The notes under the pieces: generated by a model
Database searches by the model: none
What the model was told of the DNA's origin: nothing
Seen by the model: only the letters and a program-made list of their open reading frames with translations
Position numbers and translations under genes: made by a program
Part shown: one piece after another, positions 22,083 through 31,290 of the stretch
Layout: every line of letters starts with the position of its first letter
How positions within the stretch are numbered: the stretch's first letter is position 1
Source of the DNA: Escherichia coli
GTDB lineage: Bacteria; Pseudomonadota; Gammaproteobacteria; Enterobacterales; Enterobacteriaceae
NCBI RefSeq assembly: GCF_965641715.1
Contig: NZ_OZ282453.1
Reading direction: 5' to 3' (one strand)
DNA length: 64,000 bases

Positions 22083-22301
22083 CGTGGATTCCTCAAAGCG
22101 TAAACAACGTATAACGGCGTATGATCTTATAAGCGGGACAGGCTGACAACTGTTAGTTAGCGAAAAAGTGGTTTTGCGTAAGATATTGGGGCGTTTTCTG
22201 CGCTACAGCCAGCAGATCCTCGCGCTGGAGACGTAAGGCCAAACGTCGCCAGCCTGACGCGTTTATTAAATTTCCGGATGAGCTGGCCGCAGAGTCGTAG
22301 A

Positions 22302-23063
22302 TTAATCCGCTATGATTAAACGCGTCGACAAGGACGCCAGCGTTTTGCGCGTCTGCCCATCAAGCTGATTATCCGTAATAATCTCTGTCAGTTCATTAAG
22401 ATGCGCGATATTAAACAGCGACCATGAACCGTATTTTGAGCTGTCAGCCAGGAGAATTTTGCGCGAAGCATGCGCGATAAGATCGCGTTTTAGTGCGGCT
22501 TTCTCTTCCGTGGGTGCTGTAATACCCTTTTCAAGATCCCAGCTGTTACAGCTTAAAAATGCCACGTCCGGCCAGGTATTTTGCAGCATTTTACGACCAT
22601 GTTCGCCAATGCAGGACTGGCTGGAGTCGTCGATACGTCCGCCGATAATCGTCACTTCAATCTGCTTGAATTCAGCCAAAAAAAGCGCGATATGCAGGTC
22701 GCTGGTGATCACGCGAAGCGGTAAATGGGTAATCTGCCGCGCAAGTTCAATCATTGTCGTACCGGCATCAAGGACGACGGAATCCCCCGCTTTGACCATT
22801 GACGCCGCTGCGCTGGCGATGGCATGTTTTTCCGCCAGGCTGCGCTGCATTTTCTCATGGGTAGTCGGTTGGGTAGGAATAAACCGGTTGAGGGTCACAC
22901 CGCCGTGTGTACGGCTGATAACACCCTGCTCATCGAGTTTTATCAGGTCTCGACGAATCGTGGCCGGCGACGCATTGGTTACCGCCACCAGCTCATCAAC
23001 GGTGACCAGATTATGGCTTTTCAGGTAATCCATGATCTGCTCTAACCGGTTATATCCCTTCAT
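22302..23063 (-). CDS. DeoR/GlpR-family transcriptional regulator (253 aa)
   Basis: N-terminal HTH ([30 protein letters not shown]) and C-terminal DeoR-type sugar-phosphate-binding domain; last gene of a three-gene leftward operon. Confidence 0.8.
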
Positions 23064-23064
23064 T

Positions 23065-24051
23065 TTATTCTCGCGAAATCTGCATTGCTAACTGGATGGA
23101 AACTGCCATGCTCTCAGACTTGGCTTTTCCTGTCCAGGCAATATCAAATGCGGTGCCGTGGTCGGCAGAAGTACGAATAAATGGCAACCCGGCGGTGATA
23201 TTCACCCCATCATAAAATCCAAGCAGTTTTAAAGGGATATGCCCCTGATCGTGGTACATAGCCACCACCATATCGAATAGCCCTTCATGGCACTGCATGA
23301 ACACGGTATCTGGCGGGCACGGGCCAGTAACATCAATATCTTCGGCCTGCATTGCTTCAATCGCAGGTGCGATAATCTCGATTTCCTCAGTGCCGAATAA
23401 ACCGTGTTCCCCTGCATGTGGATTTACACCCGCCACGGCAATACGCGGACGCTCAATACCGACACGTTTCAGGAAGTGGTTCGCAACTCGAATAACCGTT
23501 TTGACCCTTTCACCGTTCAATGTATCCAGGAATTTACGCAGTGAGATGTGAGTCGAAATATGGATAACCTTGAGCTTATCGGTATAGAGCACCATCGCGT
23601 ACTCTTTGCTGCCGGTAAGATGGGCCAGCAATTCCGTATGGCCAGGATAGTTATGCCCGCCAAGATGCAGCGCTTCTTTATTCAACGGCGCAGTGGCTAT
23701 GGCTTTCACCTCGCCTGATAAGGCCAGGGCCGTTGCACGTTTGATACAGCGATACGCTAAATCGCCTGCCGCAGCCTGTACCACTCCGGGTGTCAGCGCA
23801 TCGGGGTTAGCCAGCGGCTCATCCATCACGTTAATCACGCCGGGAGCAAAGTGGGCGTCGCACACCTTTTGAATGACGCGTAACTCTGTCTGCGGCGTGA
23901 TATTCATCGCCATAATACGTCGTAACGTGCGCACACAGCCCACCACCACCACCGGGGCACCAGCAAGCCCGGCTTCGCTCAGGGATTTAATAATGATCTC
24001 CGGGCCAATACCCGCCGGATCGCCCATCGTTACCGCAATAATATTATTCAC
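23065..24051 (-). CDS. PdxA-family NAD-dependent dehydrogenase, PdxA2-like (328 aa)
   Basis: Whole-length resemblance to 4-hydroxythreonine-4-phosphate dehydrogenase ([23 protein letters not shown]); starts 8 nt inside the upstream kinase gene. Confidence 0.75.
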
Positions 24052-25282
24052 TACGCTTCTCCTCGATAAAATTCAGAACCTGATGCAACGTGGTCTCATC
24101 GCCAAACCCACCGGCTTTCGTCATCACCGAACGGGACCAGACGCCGCCCAGAAAGTGACCGTATGGAACGCACTGCGCCACCTTCCCCGTAATACGAAAC
24201 CCGGTCGCACCTAACGCACTGGCTGTTGCCATTGCGACATCGCCACCAGAGAGATAAAGGGCATCAGGGGTGACACGAAGCAGAACTTGCCGGGTAAGTT
24301 CGCCAAGAAACCGGCAAATTTTTTCCCCAAGCGCAGCGCGACTCATCTGCCAACGCTGGCAAAGGGTGTCGATATGGTGCCTTGCTTCAGAATCGGTACA
24401 GGTGTGGACAATGCAGTGGTCCCCTTTCTGTAAGGCCTGCACAATACGCGCGTCATAGCCCCTGGCGTTGCCTGCCAGAATGTGTTCAACATCGACGTAT
24501 ATCTGTGTGATACGTGAGTGTGAATGCAGTGTGGCGATCTGCCGTTGAGCGATTTCGCTCATTGAACCAATAATGGCCAGCACGGTGGGTGGCGGCATAA
24601 TCGCCGAGCGCCGGGCAACGGCATCACAAATACCAGCGGAGCCGACCAGCAGCAGCGGTTGTTTAGCCTGCATCACAGCGGCAGCGATGCAATCCAGGTC
24701 GCTGTCCGTCTGCGCATCCATCACCCCAATCCACGGTTGCTCACGAGACAAATGGCTGAGCTCAGAAACTGTAACGGGCTGGCATGGAATGGCCGTCTGC
24801 AACCGAATGATGTCCGCAATTCGTGCGCTCATTACCGGGGTTTTTGGATCGCTGGCAAACTCGGTTTCCGTTAGCCGCACGCCGTTTACCCGACACTCAC
24901 CGTCCACCGTGGTCCTTCCCACCTGGGGAAATGCGGGGGCAACCACTGCGCCCGTTATGCCGCATGCCTGCATCAGGGCTTCAATTTCTGCGCCGATATT
25001 CCCTCGCAGCGTGGAATCTATCTTTTTAATCATGAGCGGCGGGTTATTCGCCAGAGGGAGATGACTCATCAGCGAGGTCATTTTCATCGCGGCCTGCTTA
25101 GGATCCATCGCCCGACTGTCGCTATTAATCACCCATACGCTTGCATCACCGTGATAAGGCGTTGCAAAGGCCACATCAACCGTATGTCCCACCTGCGCCA
25201 GGCTTACTCCTGCGTCGTTGGCCCCTGTGAAATCATCGGCAACGACGAGAATGCTCGGCTTAGTGATTCCCTTTTCCATCAT
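24044..25282 (-). CDS. four-carbon acid-sugar kinase family protein, DUF1537/OtnK-DtnK-like (about 412 aa)
   Basis: N-terminal hallmark ILVVADDFTGANDAGV; start set at the ATGATG doublet preceded by GGAG (track ORF runs to a TTG at 25321). Confidence 0.7.
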   Translation of the reverse strand: MMEKGITKPSILVVADDFTGANDAGVSLAQVGHTVDVAFATPYHGDASVWVINSDSRAMDPKQAAMKMTSLMSHLPLANNPPLMIKKIDSTLRGNIGAEIEALMQACGITGAVVAPAFPQVGRTTVDGECRVNGVRLTETEFASDPKTPVMSARIADIIRLQTAIPCQPVTVSELSHLSREQPWIGVMDAQTDSDLDCIAAAVMQAKQPLLLVGSAGICDAVARRSAIMPPPTVLAIIGSMSEIAQRQIATLHSHSRITQIYVDVEHILAGNARGYDARIVQALQKGDHCIVHTCTDSEARHHIDTLCQRWQMSRAALGEKICRFLGELTRQVLLRVTPDALYLSGGDVAMATASALGATGFRITGKVAQCVPYGHFLGGVWSRSVMTKAGGFGDETTLHQVLNFIEEKRSE

Positions 25283-25448
25283 CACTCCAGGTTGTTTTAT
25301 GATGACAATGATTATATTCAATCACGATTGATTAAATGTGAGCAAGTTCAAGTTATTAATCACTCGAATAAATTATAAAATTAGGCCATGTTACGTAGAC
25401 AACGGTATTTTGAATGATTGATTTCAATCACGAGAAGAGAGGTTATTT
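25283..25448. promoter_or_regulatory. divergent promoter/operator region of the island
   Basis: AT-rich 166-bp spacer between divergent operons containing TCAATCAC-GATTGATT (25318-25333) and its permuted inverted-repeat form GATTGATT-TCAATCAC (25416-25432). Confidence 0.5.
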
Positions 25449-26606
25449 GTGGTAATTATCAATAGCACGATACTGAGCGGCGCAGGCGCTATCCCTTCCC
25501 TGACGTCGCTCTTACCCGGCGTCAGAAAATTGCTGCTGGTCACAGACAGCAATATTGCGCAGCTTAACGGAGTGCAGCAGATTCGCGCCTTACTGGAAAA
25601 GCACTGCCCGCAGGTGAGCGTTATCGATAATGTGCCTGCAGAGCCTACGCATCATGATGTGCGCCAGCAAATGGCGACCCTCGGCAACGCGTCGTTTGAT
25701 GTAGTAGTGGGCGTCGGCGGCGGCAGCGTGCTGGATGTCGCAAAACTGTTGTCGGTGCTTTGTCACCCCGATTCACCGGGGCTGGATGCGCTGCTTGCCG
25801 GTGAAAAACCGACGCAGCGGGTGCAATCATGGTTGATTCCTACAACCGCCGGTACCGGCTCAGAAGCCACGCCAAATGCGATTCTGGCGATCCCTGAACA
25901 AAGCACGAAGGTGGGTATTATTTCTCCGGTGCTGCTACCGGATTATGTGGCACTTTTCCCCGAGCTGACCACCAGCATGCCCGCACATATTGCAGCGTCT
26001 ACGGGCATTGATGCGCTTTGTCACTTACTGGAGTGTTTTACCGCGACCGTGGCAAATCCGGTCAGCGATAACGCGGCGCTAACCGGGTTAAGTAAGCTTT
26101 TCCGGCATATTCAACCCGCCGTGAACGATCCTCAGGATCTGCGCGCAAAACTGGAAATGCTGTGGGCGTCTTACTATGGCGGCGTAGCGATAACCCATGC
26201 GGGCACGCACCTGGTCCATGCGCTCTCCTACCCGTTAGGCGGCAAATATCACCTGCCGCACGGTGTGGCGAATGCCATCTTGCTGGCACCGTGCATGGCG
26301 GTTGTTCGCCCCTGGGCGGTCGAGAAATTTGCCCAGGTCTGGGATTGCATTCCCGATGCGGATACATCCTTGAGCGCGGAAGAGAAATCTCACGCTCTGG
26401 TGGCCTGGCTACAGGCATTAGTCAATCAACTCAAGCTGCCCAACAATCTCGCGGATCTTGGCGTACCGCCAGATGATATTACGTCTCTTAGCGCGGCGGC
26501 ACTGAACGTGAAGCGCCTGATGAACAATTCCCCCTGCCAACTGAATCAGCGGGACGTGCAGGCCATTTACCAAACGCTGTTTCCGCAACATCAATTTAAG
26601 GAGTAA
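25449..26606 (+). CDS. iron-containing (group III) alcohol dehydrogenase (385 aa, GTG start)
   Basis: GGGS NAD(P)-binding motif (VVGVGGGSVLDVAKL) and His-rich metal site (HALSYPLGGKYHLPHG); RBS agagagg upstream. Confidence 0.75.
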   Translation: MVIINSTILSGAGAIPSLTSLLPGVRKLLLVTDSNIAQLNGVQQIRALLEKHCPQVSVIDNVPAEPTHHDVRQQMATLGNASFDVVVGVGGGSVLDVAKLLSVLCHPDSPGLDALLAGEKPTQRVQSWLIPTTAGTGSEATPNAILAIPEQSTKVGIISPVLLPDYVALFPELTTSMPAHIAASTGIDALCHLLECFTATVANPVSDNAALTGLSKLFRHIQPAVNDPQDLRAKLEMLWASYYGGVAITHAGTHLVHALSYPLGGKYHLPHGVANAILLAPCMAVVRPWAVEKFAQVWDCIPDADTSLSAEEKSHALVAWLQALVNQLKLPNNLADLGVPPDDITSLSAAALNVKRLMNNSPCQLNQRDVQAIYQTLFPQHQFKE

Positions 26607-26609
26607 ATC

Positions 26610-27497
26610 ATGCCAAAAACCATTGAAGGTGTATTAACCGCCATCGTCACCCCGTTTACCGCGACCGGCGTCCTGAATCTCCCGGCGTTAAAAGTGCAGG
26701 TTAATCGCCAACTGGAAGCCGGTAACGCGATTTTTTGCGGCGGCACCAACGGCGAGTTTTTTGTGTTGAACGAACAGGAGAAGCTCAGCGTTACGCAAAC
26801 CTGCGTGGATGAAGTGGCTGGCCGCGCACCGGTCGTGGCGCACATTGGTGAGATCTCGACGCGCGAAACCATTCGTCTGGGTCAGCAGATTGAAAAACTG
26901 GGCGTTGATGCGGTATCGGTCATTACCCCGTACTTTGTACCGCTAAAACAGGAAGAGCTGATTGCCCATTACACCGCAATTGCCGACGCACTAAGCATTC
27001 CCATGTTTCTCTATAACATCCCGGCCCGCACCGGCAATACGATTCAGCCGGAAACCGCGCGCGCTCTGGCGTCGCATCCCAATATCATTGGGATTAAAGA
27101 CAGCGCCGGAAGCTACGAAAGCCTGAAGGGTTTTCTCGATGCTGTGCGCAACATTGACGGCTTTAATGTGCTCAACGGCCCGGATTCGCTGATCCATAAA
27201 GGGTTTGTCGAGGGGTGTTCAGCCTGTATTTCCGGGCTCGCCAACGTCGCGCCGCGAGAAATCAATGCCATCTGGTCTCGCTTCCATGCCGGTGATATTG
27301 AAGGATCGTATCAGGCACAGGAGAGTGTGACTGGCCTGCGTACCGATCTTTATAAAGTAGCATTCTCCCCAGCTGCGGTGAAAAAAGCGTTGCAGCTTAT
27401 GGGGCATGATGTTGGTGATAGCCGCTACGCGGTTAATTTCACGCCTGAACAGATCAGCGAGATTCAACAAATTATTCGTCATTATCACATTAATTAA
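26610..27497 (+). CDS. DapA/NanA-family Schiff-base aldolase/lyase (295 aa)
   Basis: GVLTAIVTPF N-terminal motif, GGTNGEF, and Schiff-base lysine context IIGIKDSAG; starts 3 nt after the ADH stop. Confidence 0.75.
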   Translation: MPKTIEGVLTAIVTPFTATGVLNLPALKVQVNRQLEAGNAIFCGGTNGEFFVLNEQEKLSVTQTCVDEVAGRAPVVAHIGEISTRETIRLGQQIEKLGVDAVSVITPYFVPLKQEELIAHYTAIADALSIPMFLYNIPARTGNTIQPETARALASHPNIIGIKDSAGSYESLKGFLDAVRNIDGFNVLNGPDSLIHKGFVEGCSACISGLANVAPREINAIWSRFHAGDIEGSYQAQESVTGLRTDLYKVAFSPAAVKKALQLMGHDVGDSRYAVNFTPEQISEIQQIIRHYHIN

Positions 27498-27556
27498 ATT
27501 AACTCTATTATCCAGCCCGCTATAACGTATAGATAAAGAGAATAAAGGATTACCCC

Positions 27557-28315
27557 ATGTTTTTGTGGTTTATGCAGCCAGATATCTGGCTCACTTTAAT
27601 TACCCTCACCTTTCTGGAAATTATTCTCGGGGTGGATAATATTATTTTTCTTTCACTGGTGGTGGCAAAACTTCCGTTATCACAACAAAATATGGCGCGT
27701 AAACTGGGTTTAAGCTGCGCGATGATTATGCGGATATTATTGCTGATATCCATTGCGTGGCTTTCACATATTACCCAGCCGCTTTTTACCGTGCTGGCGC
27801 TGGAGATTTCGTTCCGCACGTTGATTCTACTCGGGGGCGGGCTGTTCCTGATTTATAAAGCGATACAGGAGATACGCGAAGAGTTGTCGCCCGCGCAGGA
27901 AGACGCGCATGGCAGCGGGTCGCGGCAGCTGTCGCTGTGCGGTGCTATCGTACAGATAATGCTGCTGGATATTGTGTTCAGCCTGGACTCGGTGATCACC
28001 GCCGTCGGCCTTTCTCAGCATATATTTATTATGATTGCTGCCGTCATGATTGCCGTTGGCATCATGATGTTTGCGGCGAAAACCATTGGTGACTTCGTGA
28101 ACGCGACGCCATCGATAAAAATACTGGCGTTAACCTTTTTATTATTTGTCGGCGTATTGTTGGTTGCCGATAGCCTCAATATTCATATTGCCAAAGAGTA
28201 TCTCTACTTCGCGATATTTTTCTCATTAAGCGTGGAGACACTCAATATTTTCCGTGAAAGAAGACATAAAAAAGTTTCGACATCGATCGAAACGCATGAA
28301 TCGAACTCGCATTAA
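27557..28315 (+). CDS. TerC-family integral membrane protein (252 aa)
   Basis: About seven hydrophobic helices with two DN/DS-type motifs (LGVDNIIFLSL, FSLDSVITAVG) typical of TerC/YgdQ-like proteins. Confidence 0.55.
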   Translation: MFLWFMQPDIWLTLITLTFLEIILGVDNIIFLSLVVAKLPLSQQNMARKLGLSCAMIMRILLLISIAWLSHITQPLFTVLALEISFRTLILLGGGLFLIYKAIQEIREELSPAQEDAHGSGSRQLSLCGAIVQIMLLDIVFSLDSVITAVGLSQHIFIMIAAVMIAVGIMMFAAKTIGDFVNATPSIKILALTFLLFVGVLLVADSLNIHIAKEYLYFAIFFSLSVETLNIFRERRHKKVSTSIETHESNSH

Positions 28316-28350
28316 TAAATCTATTACCGACTTTAAGATGGAGTCTAACT

Positions 28351-29520
28351 ATGTCTGTAGCTCTTATTCGTGACGGCGTCATCCGTCCGTCCGAAAATGA
28401 TTCGCATGTGCTTACCGCCATGCTGCCCTCGTCCTGCCCGCAAAACCACGCGGCGAATATTCTGCCTTTGCCGGATGGCGCGTTAATGTGCGTCTGGTTT
28501 GCGGGAACGCAGGAAGGTATTGCCGATATTTCCGTCTGGGGATCGCGGCTGCCCGCTGGCGGAACGCAGTGGAGCGATGCGGTCAAACTGTCCCACGATG
28601 ACACGCGTTCAGAGCAGAACCCGGTACTGTTTCTCGCACCGGATAACGTGCTGTGGCTGCTATGGACCGCACAAATATCCGGTAATCAGGACACCGCCAT
28701 CGTCCGCTACCGTAAGTCAGACGACCTCGGACAAACCTGGGGCGAGATTGCCACGCTGCTCGATAAACCCGGCACGTTCATTCGCCAGCCGATCACGGTG
28801 CTTGATAACGGCAACTGGCTGCTGCCCGTCTTTTATTGCCGTACCCAACCCGGTGAAAAATGGGTCGGCAATGATGATATCAGCGCAGTGAAAATTTCCG
28901 CTGACGGTGGTCACTCATGGCGCGATGTCGAGGTGCCGCAAAGTCTCGGCTGCGTTCATATGAATATCACAATGCTGCACGACGGTACGTTGGCTGCTCT
29001 CTTTCGCAGCCGTTGGGCAGACAACATCTATATCAGCCATTCTGCGGACCACGGCGAGAGCTGGTCGGTGCCGCAAGCAACCGAACTGCCCAACAACAAT
29101 TCGTCTATTCAGGTGACGACGCTTGCCAGCGGTGAGCTGGCGCTGGTGTACAACGCAATGAGTGCGGCAGGCGCAGTAGAACGTCGCGCGTCGCTGTATG
29201 ACGAAATCGACGATGGCGACGACAGTCGCAAAGAACCCACAGCCGTTGGACGCTCCGCTTTCTGGGGTGCCCCGCGCGCGCCGATGACGGTAGCGATTTC
29301 TGCCGATGGCGGGAAAAGCTGGCCGTGGCGGCGCAATCTCGATGAAGGCGATGGCTACTGCATGACCAACAATTCGCTGGAAAAGCTAAATCGCGAGTTC
29401 TCCTACCTCAGTATCAAACAAAGCCCGGACGGTACGCTGCATATCGCTTACACCTGGTGGCGTCAGGCCATCAAGTACGTGCGCATCTCCCCCGAGTGGG
29501 TTAAGGGGCAGGCATTATGA
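28351..29520 (+). CDS. BNR/Asp-box repeat sialidase-like protein, predicted cytoplasmic (389 aa)
   Basis: Four S-x-D-x-G-x-[TS]-W Asp-boxes (SDDLGQTW, SADGGHSW, SADHGESW, SADGGKSW); N-terminal IRP (FRIP-like); no signal peptide. Confidence 0.75.
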   Translation: MSVALIRDGVIRPSENDSHVLTAMLPSSCPQNHAANILPLPDGALMCVWFAGTQEGIADISVWGSRLPAGGTQWSDAVKLSHDDTRSEQNPVLFLAPDNVLWLLWTAQISGNQDTAIVRYRKSDDLGQTWGEIATLLDKPGTFIRQPITVLDNGNWLLPVFYCRTQPGEKWVGNDDISAVKISADGGHSWRDVEVPQSLGCVHMNITMLHDGTLAALFRSRWADNIYISHSADHGESWSVPQATELPNNNSSIQVTTLASGELALVYNAMSAAGAVERRASLYDEIDDGDDSRKEPTAVGRSAFWGAPRAPMTVAISADGGKSWPWRRNLDEGDGYCMTNNSLEKLNREFSYLSIKQSPDGTLHIAYTWWRQAIKYVRISPEWVKGQAL

Positions 29521-29987
29521 TTATCGGGAATCTCAACCATTTGTCACAGGCGGGGCTTCCCGCTGGCGTGAAAAATATTCTGCTGCGCCCGGAATGTTCG
29601 TTACGGGCGTTATCCGCCAGAGAGGACGGTCGCTGGCAACTGGAAGGATGCCGGTGGTTCTGCACGCTGGGCCTTTCAGACACGCAGCCCGCCGATCTCC
29701 GGCATACGGAGTATCACCATCTGTGGGCCGATATTCAGGTGGTGATTGCCGGTTGTGAGGGCATTAATGCGGGGACGCGGCCCGTAGCGCAGGAAAGCGA
29801 TGAAGAACGTAAGCCCGATCTGTTTATCGCCCCATCCCCTGAAAACAGTGTCGCAATCACCTTACACCCCGGTGATTTCGCCGTCTTTATGCCAGAAGAA
29901 CCCCATCAGGCGCTGTGCGCGGTTGGCGCGGCCACGTCAGTACGTAAAGCGGTCTTTAAGGTACCGCGCGACATGCTGGAAGCCTAA
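29517..29987 (+). CDS. YhcH/YjgK/YiaL (DUF386) family protein (156 aa)
   Basis: Size and N-terminal pattern (MIIGNLNHLSQAGLP...) typical of the DUF386 family found in sialic-acid and beta-galactoside operons; ATGA overlap with the BNR gene. Confidence 0.65.
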   Translation: MIIGNLNHLSQAGLPAGVKNILLRPECSLRALSAREDGRWQLEGCRWFCTLGLSDTQPADLRHTEYHHLWADIQVVIAGCEGINAGTRPVAQESDEERKPDLFIAPSPENSVAITLHPGDFAVFMPEEPHQALCAVGAATSVRKAVFKVPRDMLEA

Positions 29988-30000
29988 AAGGAGAGAAAAA

Positions 30001-31281
30001 ATGACAATGGAAATGATCCTGGCATTAGGAATACTGGTCCTGATGATCGTGCTGATCATGTCGGACAAAATGCCCTTTGGCGCACCGCCACTGCTTGCGT
30101 GTTTATTGCTGGTTGTCTCGGGGCTGTCGACGGTTCAACAGGCTTTTGCCGGATTCGTCAATCCAAGCGTGGTGATGATTGCAGGGTTTATGGTGGTGAT
30201 GGCTGCGCTACAAAAAACCCGGCTTATCAGCAACGTTAAATCTGCGATGATAAGCCTGGTCAATAAAGGCAGTTACCGCAGTTATGGGCTGTTGTTAGTC
30301 ATCGTTATGCTGGGCGCCAGTCTTGCCGGCACCGGCGCGACGGGTTATTACGTGCTGATTCTGTCTCTGGTATCCACCATTCCGTACAGTAAAAAGCTAC
30401 CAACATCGAAATTGATGATGCCACTGGGATTTGCCACCAACCATCCGCTTCTTCCTATCAATCTCGCGCTTCTCTTTGGCGTCACGGCGACCGTACTCGA
30501 AACAGCCGGTTTTCATCAGGAGATTTCGATGGGGCGCTTTGCGCTGGTGAATCTCGTCATGTCAGCGGCTTTTCTGGCGTGGAGTCTGATTGCCTACCGT
30601 TTTCTTCCGGATCATCCCATTGCGGATGCTTCCGAGGATGCGCTGGCCGCACGCGAAGAAACGTTTAACGCCCTTCCTGCCTGGAAAGAGTATTGCACCA
30701 TCGCCGCATTCGCCGTCAGCGTTATCGGCATGATGCTGATGAATATGCTGGGTAATATCGCCTTCGTTATTCCAGGCCTTGCGGGTGCGTTTGTTCTGAT
30801 GATCGATGTACTGGACTTTAAAGAAGTTCGCGATCATATGGGGGCACCGGTCATTTTAATGATGGCGGGGGTGATCGGTGTGGCTGATGCGCTGGCTGGC
30901 ACCGGCTTTACGGCAATGGTAGGCGATGCCGTTGCAGGTGTGCTCGGGTCTGGCGTCTCACCGTTTGTATTTATTGTCGCCTTTGCTTTACTTACCAGTA
31001 CCTGCGCCACCTTCACGGGTTCGAATATGGGGTCAGTCTATATTTTTGCCCCCATCGCCATTGCCGCCTGTACTAGCCTTGGGCTTAACCCGACCGCTGC
31101 CGCGATTGCGGTGGTGATTTCTGGCTGGAATGGCGGCTATATGCCTATTGACGGAATGCCAGCCATGATCCTCGGAATGGGGAAATACAAACTTCCCGAA
31201 TTCTGGGTGTTCTCTGTACCAATGTATCTCATCCGCATTCTGGCGCTTTGTGCAGGCGCTGTTTTTATCTTCCCAATGTAA
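30001..31281 (+). CDS. anion permease of the ion-transporter superfamily, GntP/CitMHS-like (426 aa)
   Basis: ATG at 30001 preceded by aaaggagag; 10-12 hydrophobic segments with two-repeat architecture; the track ORF (29800) carries a spurious upstream extension. Confidence 0.6.
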   Translation: MTMEMILALGILVLMIVLIMSDKMPFGAPPLLACLLLVVSGLSTVQQAFAGFVNPSVVMIAGFMVVMAALQKTRLISNVKSAMISLVNKGSYRSYGLLLVIVMLGASLAGTGATGYYVLILSLVSTIPYSKKLPTSKLMMPLGFATNHPLLPINLALLFGVTATVLETAGFHQEISMGRFALVNLVMSAAFLAWSLIAYRFLPDHPIADASEDALAAREETFNALPAWKEYCTIAAFAVSVIGMMLMNMLGNIAFVIPGLAGAFVLMIDVLDFKEVRDHMGAPVILMMAGVIGVADALAGTGFTAMVGDAVAGVLGSGVSPFVFIVAFALLTSTCATFTGSNMGSVYIFAPIAIAACTSLGLNPTAAAIAVVISGWNGGYMPIDGMPAMILGMGKYKLPEFWVFSVPMYLIRILALCAGAVFIFPM

Positions 31282-31290
31282 TCTCAGACA

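Follow-up and report, generated by a model that had tools for sequence, protein, structure and literature searches.

A 64,000-nt stretch of Escherichia coli DNA (the window, to whose positions all coordinates refer) carries a gene for a 389-residue protein with the fold of the sialidases, which lies in a cluster of genes with predicted functions in acid-sugar catabolism. We call it the BNR protein, after its Pfam domain BNR_2. It belongs to the sialidase structural clan, within a distinct, uncharacterised clade that has a modified catalytic centre, and is very probably part of an acid-sugar catabolic module that feeds the D-threonate route.

A sialidase fold with an altered catalytic set

The BNR reading frame begins with an ATG that follows a ribosome-binding site (GGAG) by 8 nt, and because in-frame stops lie just upstream of this ATG, a longer N-terminus is not possible. 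The four canonical Asp-boxes reported in a first-pass annotation of the window are all exact (Table 1); shuffled versions of the protein contain one or more exact boxes in only 1% of shuffles. A fifth, degenerate box, SRLPAGGTQW (residues 65-74, 28543-28572), which the first-pass annotation had not listed, aligns column by column with ARSTDGGKTW, Asp-box 1 of Salmonella NanH. The clan-level model BNR_2 covers the protein over the full length of the model (E 1.4e-62), and the protein has the six-bladed beta-propeller of glycoside hydrolase family 33 (GH33). Its structural matches, among them NanB, NanC and IT-sialidase, share 12-19% sequence identity with it. None of the NCBIfam models, the sialidase models included, matches it at E <= 0.001, and a domain search in 20 longer homologues found no fused domains other than BNR.

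Judging by its N-terminus, the protein is cytoplasmic. In a hydropathy check, the sole basis of this result, we saw no Sec, Tat or lipoprotein signal and no lipobox, in agreement with the first-pass annotation, which had noted that a secretion signal was missing. Residues 1-42 are polar and lack a hydrophobic core, and the most hydrophobic 11-residue segment within residues 1-70 (Kyte-Doolittle 1.49) lies inside the first propeller strand.

To compare catalytic residues, we aligned the BNR family profile with a profile of 19 GH33 sequences using hhalign (probability 98.5%, E 3e-15); the Salmonella NanH sequence was verified against PDB 3SIL, and conservation was counted over 118 BNR homologues, down to ~30% identity. 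Two arginines of the GH33 triad have counterparts in Arg219 and Arg309 (conserved in 117 and 114 homologues, respectively). The third, the FRIP arginine, is replaced by His33, which sits in the stretch NHAAN and is His in 116 homologues. The acid/base Asp has become Glu55, conserved in all 118, and the Glu that partners the nucleophilic Tyr has become His203 (His in 104, Gln in the remaining 14). Thus, of the GH33 catalytic residues that the first-pass annotation had proposed to align, two arginines are in place, while the remaining arginine, the Glu and the Asp have changed and the Tyr is ambiguous. The nucleophile of NanH, Tyr342, falls on Phe350 in the hhalign alignment and on Tyr352 in an hmmsearch against GH181 structures; the two residues are two positions apart on the same strand. 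Position 350 is variable among the homologues (Phe, Tyr or Leu) and Tyr352 is conserved in 114, and an hhalign confined to the C-terminal part left the register undecided (probability 14%). Other strongly conserved positions include Asn90 (117), Arg145 (112), Arg221 (117) and the inserted Arg371 (116). An alignment of the family profile with the lone NanH sequence was blade-shifted (probability 42%) and was discarded; in a PDB search with an N-terminal sub-profile, matches to Asp-boxes predominated and the FRIP region was left unresolved.

The protein therefore appears to use the same propeller face as the sialidases, yet it lacks two defining features of GH33, the FRIP arginine and the Tyr/Glu pair. 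The IRP tripeptide that the first-pass annotation had taken for a FRIP-like motif is a chance resemblance: its Arg12 is found in only 51 of the 118 homologues, and it precedes the part of the protein that can be aligned with GH33. In the window, residue 353 (29407-29409), adjacent to Tyr352, is Leu; it is Pro in 115 of the 118 homologues, other E. coli alleles included, so that SYPS reads SYLS.

With canonical residues replaced and P353L beside Tyr352, one might ask whether the protein is a dead or purely binding propeller (a pseudoenzyme), or whether the gene is decaying in the window strain. We find this barely credible. About 20 positions are invariant over the 118 sequences, charged residues at active-site positions included; the reading frame is uninterrupted, with its translation coupled to that of the gene that follows; and the gene has been kept in its cluster across phyla.

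Gene cluster, genomic island and distribution

The BNR gene is the fourth of six co-directional genes, encoding an iron-containing alcohol dehydrogenase (Fe-ADH), a class I aldolase, a TerC-family protein, the BNR protein, a YhcH-family protein and a permease. They are separated by 3, 59, 35, -4 and 13 nt, respectively, and the BNR stop overlaps the YhcH start as ATGA; the earlier description of an operon with a permease holds. The genes for the kinase DtnK and the dehydrogenase PdxA2 are transcribed divergently from this group.

Table 1. Window positions of the cluster, of the BNR gene and its motifs, and of residues aligned with Salmonella NanH
Feature	Position	Strand	Basis
BNR_2 (sialidase-fold) protein, 389 aa	28351..29520	+	ATG start, Pfam and structural matches
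Asp-box 1, SDDLGQTW, aa 123-130	28717..28740	+	exact S-x-D-x-G-x-T/S-W
Asp-box 2, SADGGHSW, aa 183-190	28897..28920	+	exact S-x-D-x-G-x-T/S-W
Asp-box 3, SADHGESW, aa 231-238	29041..29064	+	exact S-x-D-x-G-x-T/S-W
Asp-box 4, SADGGKSW, aa 317-324	29299..29322	+	exact S-x-D-x-G-x-T/S-W
IRP tripeptide, aa 11-13	28381..28389	+	chance resemblance
His33 (NanH R37, FRIP Arg)	28447..28449	+	hhalign starts at A34 = NanH I38
Glu55 (NanH D62, acid/base)			hhalign; conservative change
Asn90 (NanH D100)			hhalign
His203 (NanH E231, partner of Tyr)			hhalign
Arg219 (NanH R246, Arg triad)			hhalign
Arg309 (NanH R309, Arg triad)			hhalign
Thr368, then inserted Arg371 (NanH E361)			hhalign
Tyr352-Leu353	29404..29409	+	Tyr352 nearly invariant, near GH33 nucleophile position
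Accessory island with whole cluster, 9.1 kb, between glnS and nagE	22167..31286		empty-site comparison
DeoR/GlpR-family regulator	22302..23063	-	NCBIfam DeoR-family matches, nearest AgaR/YgbI, all below cut-off
PdxA2, D-threonate 4-phosphate dehydrogenase	23065..24051	-	NF002891 equivalog, 680.9 bits (cut-off 583)
DtnK, D-threonate kinase (DUF1537)	24044..25321	-	NF047819 equivalog, 531.7 bits (cut-off 450)
Iron-containing alcohol dehydrogenase (Fe-ADH)	25449..26606	+	Fe-ADH family
DHDPS/NanA-family class I (pyruvate) aldolase	26610..27497	+	family matches below equivalog cut-offs
TerC-family membrane protein	27557..28315	+	weak YkoY/YjbE TerC matches
YhcH/YjgK/YiaL-family protein (NanQ-like anomerase/ring opener)	29517..29987	+	TIGR00022, 97 bits (cut-off 45.5)
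SLC13/DASS-family anion permease	30001..31281	+	weak TIGR00785 match; RefSeq: SLC13 family permease

The aldolase scores 189.6 bits against the dapA model (cut-off 206) and 148.4 and 114.3 bits against two NanA models (cut-offs 281 and 382); its relatives in the PDB are DHDPS, YagE and NanA. Partial matches of the Fe-ADH, all below cut-off, include 4-hydroxybutyrate dehydrogenase and lactaldehyde reductase. The YhcH-family protein reaches 94.3 bits against the NanQ equivalog, whose cut-off is 160. Its nearest solved relative is PDB 9JRR (a "DUF386 domain-containing protein", E 5e-23), nearer than the Haemophilus YhcH structure; 9JRR may come from a related pathway. TerC proteins are not known to have a role in sugar-acid catabolism. 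The permease was called mechanically from an ATG at 29800, which gives a 188-nt overlap with the YhcH gene; the likely start, the ATG at 30001, follows an AGGAG and agrees with the RefSeq annotation of E. coli. In that annotation, the start of dtnK is the equivalent of 25279.

These data bear on whether the BNR protein is a true GH33 exo-alpha-sialidase acting in the cytoplasm on imported sialosides. It has the fold and the Asp-boxes of one, but we consider this highly improbable because its catalytic residues have changed, the genes around it are not nan genes (nanE, nanK and nanT were not found among them), and neither the aldolase nor the YhcH-family protein reaches the cut-offs for NanA and NanQ, respectively. 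Moreover, the partners that accompany the gene across phyla are C4 acid-sugar enzymes, and the region that forms the N-acetyl pocket of NanH aligns with a stretch that carries the invariant polar residues T106, Q108 and Q113. The option raised in the first-pass annotation that the protein is not a simple exo-sialidase is supported; the sialic acid context that the annotation implied is not.

When one genome per species was scanned, 580 relatives were returned, and gene context was counted in the best 80 loci of these 580. The hosts include Enterobacterales (Pectobacterium, Dickeya, Pantoea, Erwinia, Kosakonia, Klebsiella), Gilliamella, Pasteurellaceae and Vibrio, as well as Rhodocyclales, Burkholderia, Bradyrhizobium, Azospirillum, Methylobacterium, Roseomonas, Bacillus and Paenibacillus. 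Across these phyla the BNR gene is found with the aldolase (59 of 80 loci), Fe-ADH (57), PdxA2 (56), DtnK (55), YhcH (39) and the DeoR-family regulator (38), in at least six distinct gene orders. Even in a metagenomic genome whose BNR protein is 44% identical (L086), the gene is flanked by those for PdxA, DHDPS, Fe-ADH, a DUF1537 kinase and TerC. The TerC gene also recurs in L003, L039, L040 and L043.

The BNR gene nearly always adjoins a transporter gene and lies upstream of the YhcH gene. The type of transporter varies: an SSS symporter is encoded directly upstream in 48 loci; an SLC13/DASS transporter is found in the window and a few other loci; TAXI-TRAP and TTT systems, labels that we base on the size of the proteins, their number of membrane spans and inspection of their sequences, occur at some loci; and two distant loci have an Opp-type ABC system. 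A classical SDR of ~226-260 residues, absent from the window, is encoded directly downstream of BNR/YhcH in 47 of the 80 loci (e.g. L004-L034). Of the loci with the SSS transporter, 36 of 47 encode the SDR, and of those with SLC13, none of four; compared with the PDB, the SDR matches generic FabG-like reductases only. Genes for GH28 polygalacturonase-like proteins adjoin the cluster in four loci.

Four loci from Pantoea and Enterobacter cancerogenus (L020, L022, L023 and L049) encode the SSS transporter, BNR protein and SDR without aldolase, kinase and PdxA2 genes. They lie instead beside genes for a tartrate dehydrogenase, which scores above its curated cut-off, for a LysR regulator and for a sugar ABC transporter, and L022 and L023 also have a GH28 polygalacturonase-like gene; these loci may represent a different lower pathway, by way of a C4 dicarboxylate. 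Two homologues with 36-40% identity (L083 and L087, from the eukaryotic assembly GCA_001247695.2) have genes that span 9-11 kb and contain introns; the BNR family is therefore not restricted to bacteria. The gene contexts of the distant homologues P0178, P0185 and P0247 are uninformative or eukaryotic.

Within E. coli, the cluster is accessory. Strain PapM-32-1 has an empty site, with glnS next to nagE, and its homology with the window ends at 22166/31287; the cluster thus constitutes a 9.1-kb accessory island, which stands in place of 35 bp of the PapM-32-1 glnS-nagE spacer. No mobility genes were found within it. Of 5426 complete E. coli genomes, 1048 (19%) carry the island, always on the chromosome, and in these genomes the BNR protein is annotated as "sialidase family protein" beside "D-threonate kinase" and "D-threonate 4-phosphate dehydrogenase". 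In a pangenome study, one of the regions reported to co-occur with genomes that carry colibactin is a "D-threonate metabolism region" (PMC9125672). The copy in the window is ~94.5% identical to that in the 1047 other genomes, as against up to 99.2% for glnS, and its flanks are 93% identical on the nagE side and 99% on the glnS side, which suggests an old divergent allele or a recombination import. The core genes that flank the island are typical of E. coli, and a low-GC stretch elsewhere in the window, at 54-61 kb, is the usual E. coli hscC/ybeQ/djlBC region.

A candidate route from Dha to D-threonate

Dha, 3-deoxy-D-lyxo-hept-2-ulosaric acid, is a seven-carbon sugar acid found in side chain D of the pectin rhamnogalacturonan-II (RG-II). 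If a class I pyruvate aldolase is to feed a C4 acid, it must act on a seven-carbon 2-keto-3-deoxy dicarboxylate, and the natural compound of this kind is Dha. We therefore propose Dha as the substrate of the cluster, an assignment for which our confidence is evenly balanced. In our own stereochemical derivation, the hydroxyls of C4 and C5 lie on the left of the Fischer projection and that of C6 on the right, so that C3-C4 cleavage followed by reduction of the aldehyde would give D-threonate, the sole one of the four tetronates that matches the kinase and dehydrogenase assignments. Neu5Ac, hexuronate and hexarate substrates were rejected by carbon count, as were Kdo and KDN, since with a pyruvate aldolase they give no C4 acid. 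Among the hosts are many bacteria that live with plants or degrade pectin (for example Pectobacterium, Dickeya, Pantoea, Gilliamella, Bacillus, Paenibacillus, Bradyrhizobium, Azospirillum), and chain D (Araf-Dha, where Araf is arabinofuranose) comes off RG-II on brief heating (preprint 10.64898/2026.03.13.711244).

A different 3-deoxy-ulosonic acid, such as Kdo from lipopolysaccharide or RG-II, KDN or a 3-deoxy-heptulosonate, could instead be degraded, with the BNR protein as the matching ketosidase (e.g. a Kdo hydrolase). We regard this as very unlikely. The aldol products of Kdo and KDN would be C5 and C6 sugars (D-arabinose and mannose, respectively), which would leave unexplained both the conserved DtnK/PdxA2 pair and an Fe-ADH that resembles semialdehyde reductases. 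The di- and tricarboxylate type of the importers likewise favours a dicarboxylate.

Assuming Dha, we infer the reaction of each upstream enzyme as follows. A small anionic Dha glycoside, either the Araf-(1->5)-Dha of side chain D or a Dha ketoside, would be imported by the SLC13 permease in the window and by SSS, TAXI-TRAP, TTT or Opp-type ABC systems elsewhere. The BNR protein would then strip the glycosidic substituent in its sialidase-type central pocket and release free Dha, cutting either the C2 ketosidic bond (as do sialidases and GH143) or the Araf-(1->5) linkage. In the candidate pocket, Arg219, Arg309 and further invariant arginines could hold the two carboxylates, with Glu55, His33, His203 and Tyr352 available for chemistry. 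Next, the YhcH-like protein may open the ring; YhcH proteins are reported to open the sialic acid ring for NanA (PMC8141875). The DHDPS-type aldolase would cleave Dha to pyruvate and D-threuronate (2,3-dihydroxy-4-oxobutanoate), and the Fe-ADH, a proposed semialdehyde reductase, would reduce D-threuronate to D-threonate; this is consistent with its partial matches, as 4-hydroxybutyrate dehydrogenase and lactaldehyde reductase reduce short-chain terminal aldehydes. Finally, DtnK and PdxA2 would turn D-threonate into dihydroxyacetone phosphate (DHAP) and CO2. The activities of these two enzymes are known to take D-threonate to DHAP (PMC10079672).

The position of the BNR gene, by the transporter and upstream of YhcH, suggests that its product acts first on the imported molecule, and thus that this molecule is a Dha conjugate rather than free Dha. 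The transporters next to it are typically importers of di- and tricarboxylates or organic anions (SLC13/DASS, TAXI-TRAP-like, TTT-like, SSS) or Opp-type ABC systems. The full proposal, in which the BNR protein is the first enzyme of a Dha catabolic module and has a deglycosylating role, is tentative, and we hold it with somewhat less than even confidence. A variant of the same pathway would make the protein a beta-L-arabinofuranosidase that removes Araf from O-5 of imported Araf-(1->5)-Dha, with Dha as the aglycone. There is precedent for arabinofuranosides as substrates of a sialidase-type fold in GH93; we regard the variant as unlikely. A beta-eliminative lyase acting on Araf-Dha was rejected, since its product would be without the 2,3-diol needed by DtnK and PdxA2.

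Several observations weigh against a deglycosylating enzyme in a Dha pathway. Most of the associated transporter types (SSS, DASS, TAXI-TRAP, TTT) usually carry small, monosaccharide-sized anions, and if free Dha enters the cell a glycosidase is unnecessary. The Tyr/Glu pair of GH33 is incomplete, with His203 in place of Glu and a two-residue ambiguity in the register of the Tyr, and P353L, next to Tyr352, may weaken or alter the enzyme in the window strain. The SDR is assigned no step in the proposed route, and some loci combine BNR, SSS and SDR with no aldolase or kinase genes within 8 kb. In addition, Dha is a minor plant sugar and may not be available to E. coli.

Because of the transporters, the main rival to a glycosidase is a non-glycosidase role, in which the BNR protein acts before the aldolase as a hydratase, anomerase or ring opener on free Dha or on a derivative the size of a monosaccharide, such as an anhydro, 2,3-unsaturated or lactone form. 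Sialidases are known to hydrate Neu5Ac2en and to open 2,7-anhydro-Neu5Ac, and the structural matches to NanB, NanC and IT-sialidase are in keeping with such chemistry, as is the presence of His in place of the catalytic Arg and Glu. However, a YhcH-type anomerase is already encoded in 39 of the 80 loci, a 390-residue propeller solely for mutarotation seems uneconomical, and Dha is not known to have a natural anhydro or unsaturated derivative. On balance, we judge this role to be rather unlikely. The intramolecular trans-sialidase or hydratase activity suggested in the first-pass annotation is possible, as a minority rival.

In the literature searched on Dha, Kdo, heptulosaric acid and D-threonate kinase, we found neither a Dha catabolic pathway nor this cluster, and neither a natural upstream source of D-threonate nor a link between D-threonate and these neighbouring genes. 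It is possible, though we advance it with more reserve than the Dha module itself, that the clade marked by His33 and His203 in place of Arg and Glu and by additional invariant arginines constitutes a glycoside-hydrolase-like family new to the sialidase clan, and the entry enzyme of the first bacterial Dha pathway, which would also be a natural source of D-threonate. If so, the hosts of this pathway would include gut E. coli, plant pathogens, bee-gut symbionts and rhizobia, and the fate of Dha after the breakdown of RG-II, a domain of dietary and soil pectin, would become testable. So would the natural origin of D-threonate, which would explain why enteric and plant-associated bacteria keep DtnK and PdxA2, and the actual role of the cytoplasmic proteins that thousands of genomes list under "sialidase family proteins". 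The "exo-alpha-sialidase" label in E. coli, which suggests foraging on host glycans, would be corrected, and a sialidase-fold enzyme with a His-substituted catalytic centre would be added to those known. The island of E. coli, found in about one genome in five, may then serve niche adaptation by allowing cross-feeding on plant fibre.

Comparison with known systems

The BNR protein resembles GH33 enzymes (Salmonella NanH, 3SIL; Micromonospora viridifaciens, 1EUS/1EUR) in its propeller fold and Asp-boxes, at a sequence identity of 13-19%, and differs from them in its cytoplasmic location, in the additional invariant arginines Arg145, Arg221 and Arg371, and in a genomic context that is not that of sialic acid. 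Human Neu2 is a GH33 sialidase that is cytosolic, as the BNR protein is, but, unlike the BNR protein, it has canonical catalytic residues and no link to an acid-sugar operon. The best PDB match of the BNR family, profile to sequence, is the GH181 sialidase Am1547 of Akkermansia (8HLS, 8AXS, 9EOB; E 2e-17), over blades 3-6 and including the two arginines. GH143 is a sialidase-like Dha-hydrolase in Bacteroides (PMC6811678). The GH143 domain of BT1020 from Bacteroides thetaiotaomicron (5MQS) is reported to be five-bladed, to have the Tyr/Glu pair, and to be fused to a GH142 arabinofuranosidase; in contrast, the BNR protein is a cytoplasmic, single-domain protein that is nearer to GH33 and has His in place of that Glu.

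At the level of the pathway, the cluster shares with E. coli sialic acid catabolism (NanA and NanQ/YhcH) the same protein families and the same order of import, ring opening and class I pyruvate aldolase, but its downstream genes encode C4 acid-sugar enzymes instead of NanE and NanK. The glucarate/galactarate pathway uses the aldolase GarL, the tartronate-semialdehyde reductase GarR and the kinase GarK. Its logic is parallel and one carbon shorter: a keto-deoxy aldarate is cleaved to pyruvate and a semialdehyde, which is then reduced and phosphorylated. The enzyme families differ, however, as does the product (C3 instead of C4), and the route starts without a glycosidase-like step. Catabolism of D-threonate by DtnK and PdxA2 was reportedly described by Zhang et al. 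in PNAS in 2016; the window DtnK and PdxA2 score above the curated equivalog cut-offs for these two enzymes, and it is to this known route that the cluster would supply D-threonate.

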